DNA of 10,560 nucleotides from a virus (IMGVR_UViG_2734482784_000004), one strand, 5' to 3'; shown: positions 2,260-5,810, counted from the first letter of the stretch. Numbers and translations are program-made. The notes: generated by a model not told the origin, from the sequence alone.

Positions 2260-2415
2260 TTACTCCTCAGGTTCGTAAGCTGTGAAGACAGCGACCTCCG
2301 TCTGGCCGGTTCGGATTCGTACCTCGCAGAGGTCTTTCCTCGTTACCAGTGCCGTCACTATGACGGTTAAACAGATGACGATCAGGGCGATTAACATCGC
2401 CTTTTGCTGCTTCAT
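2260..2415 (-). CDS. hokD: Hok-family type I toxin (HokD/RelF-like, 51 aa)
   Basis: Translation from the internal ATG at 2413..2415 is MKQQKAMLIALIVICLTVIVTALVTRKDLCEVRIRTGQTEVAVFTAYEPEE, which matches HokD/RelF as I remember it. AAGGAG lies 9 nt upstream. A GC-rich hairpin (2231..2252, GGCGAGGGA-tttc-TCCCTCGCC) follows the stop codon and the terminator lies further downstream. Confidence 0.9.
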   Translation of the reverse strand: MKQQKAMLIALIVICLTVIVTALVTRKDLCEVRIRTGQTEVAVFTAYEPEE

Positions 2416-2672
2416 AGCCTGCTTCTCCTTGCCTTTCGGCACGTAAGAGGCTAACCTACATGTGTCTAGCATGAAATTGGCCTCAGATTAATGTTAAGCG
2501 TCTTGCAGGACGCGTAATGTTAACTGGGGCTTTTCTCTACCTGCCGTTGGTGTTCGTGCCCGAGGCAGATAGCCTCAAGCACCCGCAGTCATTCTACTTA
2601 ACTAAGATTTCCCCGCAAACCGTTTTGTCCAGCACAGTAAATATCCAACTAAACCAATGGAGTTCGCTGTAT

Positions 2673-2852
2673 TTACCGCCAGTATTCAATGCACATGACC
2701 GCCATGAACACCCCTAAAAAAAGGGCATTTATATATCCAAATATTAATATCAAAACATCAACTTTTTCCATATACCTTGCTGTGAAGATGATGGGCATAC
2801 ATGATGCGAACAACCAGAACGCAACAAACAAAAACTGCAATGCGTTTTTCAT
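2673..2852 (-). CDS. Small predicted two-helix membrane protein (59 aa) in an AT-rich islet
   Basis: ATG at 2850..2852 preceded by GGGGGA; the ORF-track GTG at 2891 has GAGG directly abutting it, so the shorter form is preferred. The product (MKNALQFLFVAFWLFASCMPIIF...VDVLILIFGYINALFLGVFMAVMCIEYWR) has two hydrophobic stretches. Surrounding DNA is visibly AT-rich. Confidence 0.4.
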   Translation of the reverse strand: MKNALQFLFVAFWLFASCMPIIFTARYMEKVDVLILIFGYINALFLGVFMAVMCIEYWR

Positions 2853-3215
2853 TATTCCCCCTACAATCAATGTGCAATAACATTTAAACACACCTCAATT
2901 TAGCCGGACATATAAATATCTAAACCAGAAAAAATCACTTACATAGCGTTACAAACTCTTTAGTCTAAATATTCATCGTAAAACATTCCCCATACTTATC
3001 AGCCCGTTCTGCGCCAGGTAGCTCATTGCCTTATCTGGGAACCTGTAATCAGGTTTCCGGATGCTGGTGGATTTTCGCGTTTTAGTTGTTCATAAAAGTG
3101 CACAGCTTTAACCAGTTCTTCTGATGTAACCGGGACTGGCGGGGCAGTGAATAAGGCCTGAATTTCATAGTTCGGCCTATCGTTACAATCCTCTTTTTTC
3201 GGTACATATTTCCAG

Positions 3216-3338
3216 TCACCAGACCACTACTTCCCCTGAAAGTCCGTAACGCCTTTTTTTCACGTAGCGATATCGCCATGCCACTGTTTTTGCTTGCCCC
3301 GCCGTTTCATGCCCTTCCTGATAATTAACCTCGCTCAT
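3216..3338 (-). CDS. Hypothetical 40-aa basic peptide, start overlapping the stop of the upstream 58-aa ORF (ATGA)
   Basis: ATG at 3336..3338 overlaps the TGA at 3335..3337 of the upstream ORF. Translation MSEVNYQEGHETAGQAKTVAWRYRYVKKRRYGLSGEVVVW. Below the ORF-track length cutoff and competes with a different-frame 65-aa ORF at 3082..3279. Confidence 0.25.
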   Translation of the reverse strand: MSEVNYQEGHETAGQAKTVAWRYRYVKKRRYGLSGEVVVW

Positions 3339-3511
3339 TCATCGCCCCACTCATCACAATATGCTTCGACCGGAGTTTTTCCTGCTTCATAATCATCACG
3401 CCATGCTTCAGCATCAGCAGCACTGCTACCACGTAACTCTGCATAGTCCATTAACAGTTCATGCCATTCTTCAAAACCGACGTTGTATTTAGTTGAACCA
3501 AAATCAGCCAT
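3335..3511 (-). CDS. Hypothetical small acidic protein (58 aa)
   Basis: ATG at 3509..3511 preceded by GAAGAGGAAG about 6 to 8 nt upstream. Translation MADFGSTKYNVGFEEWHELLMDYAELRGSSAADAEAWRDDYEAGKTPVEAYCDEWGDE is strongly acidic with a protein-like composition. Not in the ORF track because it is under 60 aa. Confidence 0.45.
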   Translation of the reverse strand: MADFGSTKYNVGFEEWHELLMDYAELRGSSAADAEAWRDDYEAGKTPVEAYCDEWGDE

Positions 3512-3548: not shown

Positions 3549-3686
3549 TTAATTGCAGTAGTTAAAGAAAATATCTTTTGCTTCGTCATGTATTTCATCA
3601 GGCGTCGCATCATTATCCACTTCGAATTCATCCTCGAAATCTCCACCGGCTATTCCCGTTTCAATAATTATTTTAAACTTTCGCAT
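3549..3686 (-). CDS. Hypothetical small acidic protein (45 aa)
   Basis: ATG at 3684..3686, TAA at 3549..3551. Translation MRKFKIIIETGIAGGDFEDEFEVDNDATPDEIHDEAKDIFFNYCN. AGGAGG lies upstream but is separated from the ATG by a GC hairpin (3698..3715). Confidence 0.3.
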   Translation of the reverse strand: MRKFKIIIETGIAGGDFEDEFEVDNDATPDEIHDEAKDIFFNYCN

Positions 3687-4942: not shown

Positions 4943-5308
4943 ATGGAATTTAAAGATTTACCGTCTGATGTACAGAAAACAGCAGCTCATACATTGCATT
5001 CTGTGCTGCGAGAAATCGGGAAAGATATTGCAAGCGAGCCAGCAAAAGATCTGGCCCGGAAAATCAAGACCGCTTTCGTTGAGCTTTATAATGTTGGCAC
5101 TGACTCTGAAACTGTCGAGACCAAGACCGTAAGTTCACCAATATTCTCACTTGAGCCAGGCGTATTAGCAGGTGAAATATGCACCGAGATTTCCAGCGAA
5201 CTGCTTCCGGTAATACGAGAAGCAATTTGCCGTCGCGGTTTGGATGGAAGTTACGATCATGACGTCCTGCAAGTTCTCAGGACAATGGTGACTTCACTGG
5301 GGATTTGA
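4943..5308 (+). CDS. Hypothetical acidic protein (121 aa)
   Basis: ATG at 4943 preceded by GAGG (4933..4936) with a 6-nt spacer; the ORF-track start at 4931 lacks an RBS. TGA at 5306..5308. No motif recognised. Confidence 0.6.
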   Translation: MEFKDLPSDVQKTAAHTLHSVLREIGKDIASEPAKDLARKIKTAFVELYNVGTDSETVETKTVSSPIFSLEPGVLAGEICTEISSELLPVIREAICRRGLDGSYDHDVLQVLRTMVTSLGI

Positions 5309-5752: not shown

Positions 5753-5810
5753 TTTCTGGTGACGTTTGGCGGTATCAGTTTTACTCCGTGACTGCTCTGC
5801 CGCCGTTTTT
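5753..5810 (+). ncRNA. dicF: DicF small regulatory RNA (ftsZ-targeting, Hfq-dependent)
   Basis: Sequence TTTCTGGTGACGTTTGGCGGTATCAGTTTTACTCCGTGACTGCTCTGCCGCC followed by GTTTTT matches DicF as I remember it, including the GGCGG/CCGCC terminator stem and U-tail. It lies immediately upstream of dicB, as in Qin. Confidence 0.85.

Follow-up and report, generated by a model that had tools for sequence, protein, structure and literature searches.

The AT-rich patch and its surroundings

The stretch of viral DNA analysed here (IMGVR_UViG_2734482784_000004, 10,560 nucleotides (nt), hereafter the window) belongs to a Qin-type (Qin-like) lambdoid prophage of Escherichia coli. We looked at an AT-rich patch that lies directly upstream of a hok toxin gene and contains a 59-codon open reading frame (ORF). 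In order of coordinates, the minus strand carries a rem-like gene (1792-2043), hok, the hok leader, the 59-codon ORF, a frameshifted gene and further small nin-region genes; the main features are collected in Table 1. The ORF is part of the nin region and shares the orientation of the replication genes and Q, between which it lies; nin-region genes adjoin it on one side and hok, rem, ydfU and Q on the other. Several E. coli chromosomes match the window from 2400 to 3300 at 100% identity; one of them is that of strain CP53, where tail genes, hokD, DUF7167, Cro/CI-type regulators, dicB, ydfD, an exonuclease, an excisionase and an integrase are found in the neighbourhood.

Table 1. Features of the AT-rich patch and of the genes on either side of it
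Feature	Position	Strand	Basis
59-codon protein-coding gene, predicted two-helix membrane protein (stop codon 2673-2675, ATG 2850-2852)	2673..2852	-	ORF list; conservation in four lineages
Run of seven T (A on the plus strand) inside the ORF, frameshift hotspot	2716..2722	-	55-amino-acid variants arise here
Shine-Dalgarno sequence AGGGGG, 4 nt before the ATG	2857..2862	-	read from the sequence
AT-rich leader between the upstream gene's stop codon (2973) and the ATG	2853..2972	-	GC 0.308; four-lineage alignment
TGTTTAAAT motif (TGnTTAA[A/C]T in four lineages), ending about 29-30 nt upstream of the ATG	2882..2890	-	alignment
Tail 3' of the ORF, running into the hok promoter region	2627..2672	-	alignments; no terminator detected
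hok (annotated hokD) toxin coding sequence, conserved downstream neighbour of the ORF	2260..2415	-	Pfam PF01848 (HOK_GEF), E=3e-23; PGAP annotation in the identical CP53 chromosome
hok messenger RNA (mRNA) leader with the mok/sok regulatory region of the adjacent type I toxin-antitoxin locus	2410..2584	-	Rfam RF01794, full length, 107.8 bits, E=2.6e-24
Upstream neighbour, nin-region gene without assigned function, frameshifted in the window	2973..3338	-	PGAP pseudogene in CP53

An earlier note on this DNA had described the patch as visibly more AT-rich than its flanks and had taken this to suggest separately acquired DNA. The calculation bore out the composition: the guanine + cytosine (GC) content was 0.348 in 2673-3000 and 0.467 across the whole window. 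This interval is essentially the minimum among all 328-nt intervals of the 10.5 kb (minimum 0.345, start 2670), and the 0.13% of intervals with a GC content this low all overlap the same spot. Both flanks have higher values: the hok locus (2260-2626) reaches 0.504 and the upstream gene 0.467. When its limits were redrawn from relatives, the low-GC unit covered 2627-2972 (GC 0.355), with a 120-nt leader, the 180-nt ORF (GC 0.372) and a 46-nt tail. The GC content of the ORF was 0.32-0.38 in every lineage described below, against 0.46-0.48 in the surrounding loci.

The separate acquisition stood only in part. The patch is accessory DNA: the Qin prophage of E. coli K-12 (locus L089) matches the window at 94% only as far as 2429, 14 nt upstream of the hok ATG, and beyond this point has relBE (relE-relB) in place of the hok leader and the patch, while phage 606R7 has other genes between its nin genes and hok and no patch. 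In the Shiga toxin (Stx)-phage hokW loci, which are hok loci without the ORF, similarity to the window stops at 2626. Two marks of a moron according to the Juhala/Hendrix definition (as summarised in PMC3594210) were found, namely extra DNA that some phages carry and relatives such as K-12 Qin and 606R7 lack at the corresponding place, and a deviant base composition (0.355 against 0.467). For a third mark, a promoter and terminator by which a moron is expressed from the repressed prophage, no consensus sites were detected, only a weak motif conserved in position (see below). However, the ORF moves together with hok as one block, so that the patch is neither an insertion acquired separately beside hok nor a clean insertion of a single gene. 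The final 90 nt or so of the upstream gene share this mosaic block in most relatives.

The 59-codon ORF and its family

The minus-strand ORF starts with an ATG and encodes a product of 59 amino acids (aa), MKNALQFLFVAFWLFASCMPIIFTARYMEKVDVLILIFGYINALFLGVFMAVMCIEYWR. Its length alone is not significant, an ATG-initiated ORF of at least 59 aa being present in 12.5% of dinucleotide shuffles of 2627-2972; an ORF both equally long and equally hydrophobic was present in 0.3% of them. The reality of the gene was settled by comparative evidence and not by these shuffle statistics. Close relatives alone could not settle it, because copies of the patch, present in 1570 of the 5426 complete E. coli genomes (~29%), are always 95-100% identical. 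More distant members were found in an exhaustive HMMER profile search of 1.84 billion representative proteins, which detected a paralog (P0036/P0041) of 59 aa, 41% identical and aligned without gaps, and in a second profile search, which detected a third lineage (P0093), also of 59 aa and 54% identical. An ortholog in E. coli TA280 is 85% identical to the window ORF in nucleotides and 78% in amino acids. Altogether, the four lineages are all exactly 59 aa long without insertions or deletions, share 41-78% amino-acid identity with the window protein, and have 20 residues invariant: M1, L5, L8, W13, S17, C18, P20, I21, I22, L36, F38, G39, A43, G47, V48, F49, I55, E56, W58 and R59. Conservation of the ORF, on which the earlier note had made its proposal depend, is therefore observed.

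The way in which these sequences differ points to a translated minus strand. Differences between the window and TA280 are distributed 8/4/15 over the three codon positions, with a ratio of non-synonymous to synonymous substitution rates (dN/dS) of 0.32; the antisense frame scores alike (0.31) in this comparison alone. The alignment with the paralog ORF is 59% identical in nucleotides and gap-free, and here the proportions of synonymous (pS) and non-synonymous (pN) differences were 0.72 (saturated) and 0.34 in the sense frame, against 0.44 and 0.39 in the antisense frame. No frame but that of the minus strand stays open across the window, the paralog and TA280. Loci were retrieved from viral, metagenomic and genomic collections, and in these the gene was intact in 152 of the 153 full-length copies of lineage 1, to which the window belongs, and in all 18 paralog copies; a single degraded copy was seen (L006). 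At least 1000 contigs have an entry for a protein identical to that of the window. ATCC 25922 and Shigella flexneri are among the carriers of lineage 1, and ATCC 11775 carries the paralog. Read from sequence comparison, the minus-strand ORF is a genuine protein-coding gene under long-term purifying selection, and belongs to a small gene family, so far undescribed, whose members appear only in Escherichia/Shigella lambdoid prophages and their remnants.

The internal ATG is the only start with a ribosome-binding site in all lineages, the purine-rich equivalents of the window's strong Shine-Dalgarno sequence being GGGGGG in TA280, AGGGAC in the paralog and AGAGAC in lineage 3. A 72-aa form starting from a GTG at 2891, annotated in many GenBank records, was rejected: this upstream start has no usable ribosome-binding site, and the upstream frame stops just before the ATG, out of frame, in the paralog and after five codons in lineage 3. 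Frameshifted proteins of 55 aa, ending in ...FFRGVHGGHVH, make up a minority of database entries.

We also considered that the patch does not code on the minus strand, its gene being the plus-strand ORF 2689-2880 (63 aa) or the region being a small RNA or regulatory element. The plus-strand ORF is open in the window and TA280, with the antisense dN/dS given above for that single comparison, and two phage records, ON470612 and ON470619, call it 'hornerin', while PV340562 lists a hypothetical protein there. In the paralog, however, it contains 2 stops and pS is about equal to pN, and we rejected it as an antisense shadow of the minus-strand gene. Concerning an RNA element, Rfam gave no match in the patch, either with its gathering thresholds or with the limit relaxed to E<=5, and RNA folding and RNAalifold of the leader and tail detected neither stability beyond that of shuffles nor convincing covariation; plus-strand folds of the patch were weaker than shuffles, and a hairpin overlapping the ORF stop codon had a z-score of 0. 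Prophage Pas small RNAs, reported near Sok, were rejected as the identity of the patch, since they lie beside lysis genes and end in terminators, of which the patch has none. We consider both forms of this explanation very improbable. A plus-strand antisense RNA, which the earlier note had proposed to look for, was not detected either: between 2200 and 3400 no promoter-like or terminator-like site was found on that strand, in a scan that also missed the known sok promoter.

As for transcription, the ATG-proximal ~45 nt of the leader are partly conserved in all four lineages, as are the first ~35 nt after the stop codon. The TGnTTAA[A/C]T motif of the leader is a weak candidate for an extended -10 element, its score in a position-weight scan being low (about 5 bits); this home-made promoter scan gave low scores only. 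Since the ORF shares the orientation of the replication-nin-Q genes, read-through from the early-right operon is the simplest expectation, and the ORF would probably be transcribed in this way in the window, possibly with help from a weak promoter of its own. An AU-rich imperfect hairpin was seen at 2912-2975 on the minus strand, right after the stop of the upstream gene; it has no U-tail, is by eye not conserved in TA280, and the fold of 2845-2975 has a z-score of -1.5.

The other lineages have different settings. The paralog, present in 1045 of the 5426 complete E. coli genomes (~19%), belongs to what is left of a prophage at the Rac attachment site, ttcA. This decayed, AT-rich remnant is about 2 kb long (loci L091-L098, gene at 5001-5180), is bounded by part of an integrase gene on one side and by fragments of sit genes (sitD), uspF and ompN on the other, and has the 59-aa paralog as its sole intact ORF. 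Lineage 3 is rare and was found in an Stx prophage without hok, beside a P1-like c4/isrK/ant region; it runs opposite to the adjoining genes, an orientation that implies a separate promoter for this copy. We noted a palindrome, TTGTCAAC-N16-GTTGACAA, some 105-135 nt upstream of the lineage-3 gene (L179, 4865-4896), adjoining Rfam matches for C4 antisense RNA, isrK and sRNA-Xcc1; it may serve this gene as operator or promoter, or else belong to the ant-immunity module next to it. An apparent tandem duplication in TA280 (L003, 4215-4480) was rejected as a scaffold-gap artefact, with identical copies flanking a run of N.

The family is in no protein-family library searched and in no RefSeq record sampled. 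The window gene is not called by the annotation pipeline PGAP and was unannotated in every RefSeq record sampled, and in 25 of 25 sampled rows the paralog had no RefSeq annotation, with no feature at all listed there. Many GenBank submissions carry a family member as 'hypothetical protein', and a full-text literature search for the peptide sequence gave no match. Such a widespread unannotated gene is a concrete example of the hidden small membrane proteome of prophages; a family model could be added to the libraries, and the plus-strand 'hornerin' entries in phage records should go.

A predicted membrane hairpin next to hok

The two hydrophobic segments that the earlier note had read in the product were confirmed: 19-residue Kyte-Doolittle peaks reached 2.1 and 2.4 with a grand average of hydropathy of 1.27, and AlphaFold2 placed helices at 2-26 and 31-58 (mean predicted local distance difference test score 72). 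In every lineage K/R at 2-3 makes the N-terminus basic and the C-terminus closes with W58-R59, both invariant, and the net charge of the loop (0, -5, -1 and -2 in the four lineages) ranges from neutral to strongly acidic. With the positive-inside rule, this charge pattern suggests an N-in/C-in hairpin. The 59-aa product would thus insert in the inner membrane as a helical hairpin, its two ends probably in the cytoplasm and its very short loop of mostly acidic character (residues 26-32) probably in the periplasm. Helix 2 carries an invariant G39xxxA43xxxG47 zipper together with G39-[H/Y]40-x-N42, and helix 1 an invariant S17-C18-x-P20; this last motif would sit roughly level with G39-[H/Y]40-x-N42 in the bilayer's outer half. 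Conserved features at a shared depth suggest helix packing, oligomerisation or a docking face for a partner, and the Ser-Cys-x-Pro and GxxxAxxxG motifs are ready targets for mutagenesis.

The same residues allow another form of the product, compatible with any of the functions considered below. Helix 1 might be a lipoprotein signal peptide, with Cys18 lipidated and signal peptidase II cleavage releasing a 42-residue lipopeptide held by helix 2. All four lineages have K/R at 2-3, then an uncharged stretch of 13-14 residues and [F/T/V]-[A/I]-S-C18; the MKKTL- start is typical of signal peptides, and S17 and C18 are invariant despite 41% overall identity. A permissive PROSITE-type rule, which asks for a basic N-region, an uncharged hydrophobic region and a lipobox Cys between residues 15 and 35, accepts Cys18 in the four lineages but only 2.5% of shuffles. 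On the other hand, the lipobox is atypical, with F or T at position -3 in three lineages and S at position -1, and the strict pattern [LVI][ASTVI][GAS]C fits the paralog alone (V-I-S-C). Besides, the seven residues after the Cys are hydrophobic, so that residues 4-25 read as one continuous 22-residue transmembrane helix. Very small lipoproteins are known from mobile elements, such as the colicin lysis/release proteins, T5 Llp and Cor, and the ORF product is like them in its short precursor, basic N-terminus, hydrophobic stretch and conserved Cys after a small residue; unlike theirs, its would-be mature part is a transmembrane helix and not soluble or amphipathic, its lipobox departs from the norm, and no homology links them. 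We regard lipidation as possible but doubtful.

No known family accounts for the protein. Pfam, PHROGs, NCBIfam and PADLOC have no family for the ORF (Pfam and PADLOC-DB 2.0 at E<=1), the neighbouring hok reaching E=3e-23 under PF01848 in the same Pfam search, and at E<=10 Pfam gave no family match for any lineage. A sub-threshold DUF4212 match of the paralog lineage (E=0.03) was treated as compositional. A profile search of the PDB gave no match, and Foldseek of viral models gave nothing at E<=0.001, with generic hairpins only.

We then looked at the relation to hok, whose adjacency the earlier note had rightly pointed out. The hok locus follows the ORF directly, with 257 nt between the ORF and the hok ATG. 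In lineage 1, the hok leader directly follows the ORF in 126 of the 127 related loci with enough flank, and in 82 of these the hok ATG comes 257-260 nt after the ORF. In 43 related loci an insertion sequence (IS) element interrupts hok precisely at its ATG and leaves the ORF intact. This insertion, found in about a third of related loci and inactivating hok, lies at the equivalent of 2413-2415 (e.g. L112, ~2948) and changes ATG to AT|T..., the transposase ORFs beginning about 110 nt downstream. In 15 of 16 paralog loci, a truncated 3' fragment of hok, 80% identical to the window hok over 66 nt, lies 54 nt downstream of the gene. The link with hok is thus no accident of this window. The pairing is old, the ORF can do without hok, as in lineage 3, and some hok loci have no ORF. 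Judged from these arrangements, the ORF and the complete hok/sok locus immediately downstream are ancestrally one mosaic block. Taking the reality of the gene, the family, the mosaic block and the membrane hairpin together, we consider this set of readings probable.

What the protein may do

The product resembles, in kind, small prophage accessory membrane proteins, and on grounds of sequence or context it is not a Hok/Gef protein, a holin or a member of a catalogued defence system. We tentatively favour a non-lethal accessory inner-membrane factor of the prophage, which would act in phage-phage conflict at the membrane (superinfection exclusion or defence) or on a host membrane protein. Superinfection exclusion and abortive infection, two of the roles that the earlier note had put forward, are plausible. 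This reading is preferred because the ORF is intact beside a broken hok and in decayed remnants such as that at ttcA, where the neighbouring integrase and sit genes are fragments, because lineage 3 stands alone, because no antitoxin signal was found, and because HK97 gp15, a moron-encoded inner-membrane protein, is a superinfection-exclusion factor (PMC3594210). Like exclusion proteins of the gp15 type (PMC3594210), the product is a small membrane protein encoded on accessory, compositionally deviant DNA that is absent from close relatives. The likeness is by kind alone: there is no sequence similarity, the ORF is in the nin region and not in the tail operon, and a promoter and terminator of its own are not demonstrable. 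T4 Imm and P22 SieA also count among the inner-membrane exclusion proteins of temperate phages.

The earlier note had proposed a type I toxin among the possible roles, in a tandem membrane-toxin arrangement with Hok. This gained no support. The product has the small size and hydrophobicity of such toxins (about 60 aa or less), is linked to hok in two lineages, and like the Hok/Gef toxins is a short hydrophobic protein of the inner membrane encoded on a prophage. Unlike them, it has two hydrophobic segments, which is unusual for type I toxins, Hok/Gef having one followed by a periplasmic tail; it falls outside PF01848 and every other toxin family searched, and no mok-like overlapping frame, sok-like RNA or fold-back leader was detected. 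A third lineage without hok and a gene intact where hok is destroyed also argue against it, and a free-standing type I toxin appears less likely than a non-lethal accessory factor.

Second in our ranking comes a membrane-damaging peptide of toxin, holin or pinholin type, which would oligomerise through its glycine zipper and depolarise or permeabilise the inner membrane in lytic growth, adding to Hok-assisted lysis or to abortive infection. The hokW-sokW locus of a lambdoid prophage assists lysis and doubles phage release (PMC8621323), and a membrane-active neighbour in the same operon direction would fit such help. The small size, strong hydrophobicity and invariant GxxxAxxxG of the product, and the Hok toxin adjoining it in two lineages, are in line with this, and the early-right operon direction would limit expression to the lytic cycle, so that no antitoxin would be needed. 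GhoT and OrtT are two-helix membrane toxins of about 57 aa, the same size class and the same predicted hairpin architecture; yet no lineage matches them or any other toxin family in Pfam at E<=10, and no GhoS-like partner gene is present. Class II holins and pinholins, such as S21 of the lambdoid phage 21, have two transmembrane helices, and the product is like them in this, in its probable N-in/C-in topology, its glycine-zipper-type motifs and its lambdoid origin. Unlike holins, which are encoded in the lysis cassette beside the endolysin and have a charged C-terminal tail, it is encoded outside this cassette and ends in four residues only, EYWR; no PHROG holin was matched, and Foldseek holin matches were non-significant (E>3). 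No antisense RNA signals were found, lineage 3 is oriented against the lytic operon, and the ORF is kept intact in decayed remnants and beside the IS-disrupted hok. We hold a membrane-damaging role to be possible, though with more doubt than the accessory role.

A partnership with Hok comes third, and we think it unlikely. The protein would serve prophage hok/sok as a dedicated third part, gating or neutralising Hok or cooperating with it as a modulator or immunity factor, possibly lipid-anchored, or its transcript would read into hok and tune the hok mRNA, making a three-part module. The two genes have stayed adjacent in a pair of lineages with 59% amino-acid difference, no terminator was detected between the ORF and the hok promoter, and the ~35 nt after the stop codon are conserved. 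Plasmid R1 hok/sok, however, functions without such a gene, lineage 3 has no hok, the Stx-phage hokW loci lack the ORF (similarity ending at 2626), and the ORF persists intact after loss or disruption of hok; common descent of one mosaic block would explain the linkage as well. If a third component were nevertheless involved, chromosomal and prophage hok would ancestrally be a unit of two proteins and an RNA, with the plasmid and K-12 loci as reduced forms. In any case, the repeated pairing with one of the best-studied toxin-antitoxin systems raises the matter of what this neighbour does to Hok action, phage release and superinfection.

Coming back to the favoured reading, of a conserved membrane hairpin acting as an accessory factor, several points weigh against it. 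The topology is predicted only from charges counted by hand in the two termini and the loop. A consensus scan of both strands of the patch region yielded neither a sigma-70 promoter nor an intrinsic terminator, so that independent transcription of the moron type is no more than a possibility. There is no similarity to any exclusion or defence protein (none in PADLOC), and the conserved hok pairing and the glycine zipper fit a pore-forming or lysis-assisting role equally well. Frameshifted and read-through variants occur among database proteins. Finally, polymorphism within lineages has the proportions that neutrality would give (6 non-synonymous to 1 synonymous in lineage 1, 3 to 0 in the paralog); it is too sparse to test selection, and recent selection is not demonstrable.

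These last points bear on a further explanation, namely that the gene once had a function but is by now subject to neutral drift in cryptic prophages, without any current role in this genome. Along with the mostly non-synonymous polymorphism, it would account for the frameshift and fusion variants at the T-run and the 3' end, the degraded copy L006, the upstream gene that is a pseudogene here and the missing PGAP call. Against it, frame, length and 20 residues have been kept across lineages whose synonymous sites are saturated, more than 99% of the sampled copies are intact, and the exact protein recurs on the contigs counted above. We regard neutral drift as improbable, somewhat more so than a partnership with Hok.

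Some observations concern the neighbouring genes. The hok locus of the window is complete, with its full-length Rfam leader/sok match, and is a fuller arrangement of the hokD annotated in K-12. The frameshifted upstream gene is split into ORFs 3216-3338 and 3082-3279, and mosaic breakpoints relative to other phages lie inside it, at about 3041-3063. Further on, the minus strand carries two small nin-region genes at 3549-3686 and 3335-3511, encoding a DUF7167 protein (phrog_1997) and a 58-aa protein; the latter matches only the C-terminal half of phrog_519, suggesting a truncation. A DicF small RNA at 5754-5805 on the plus strand (Rfam, 72.5 bits) confirms the Qin-type immunity and division-inhibition region.

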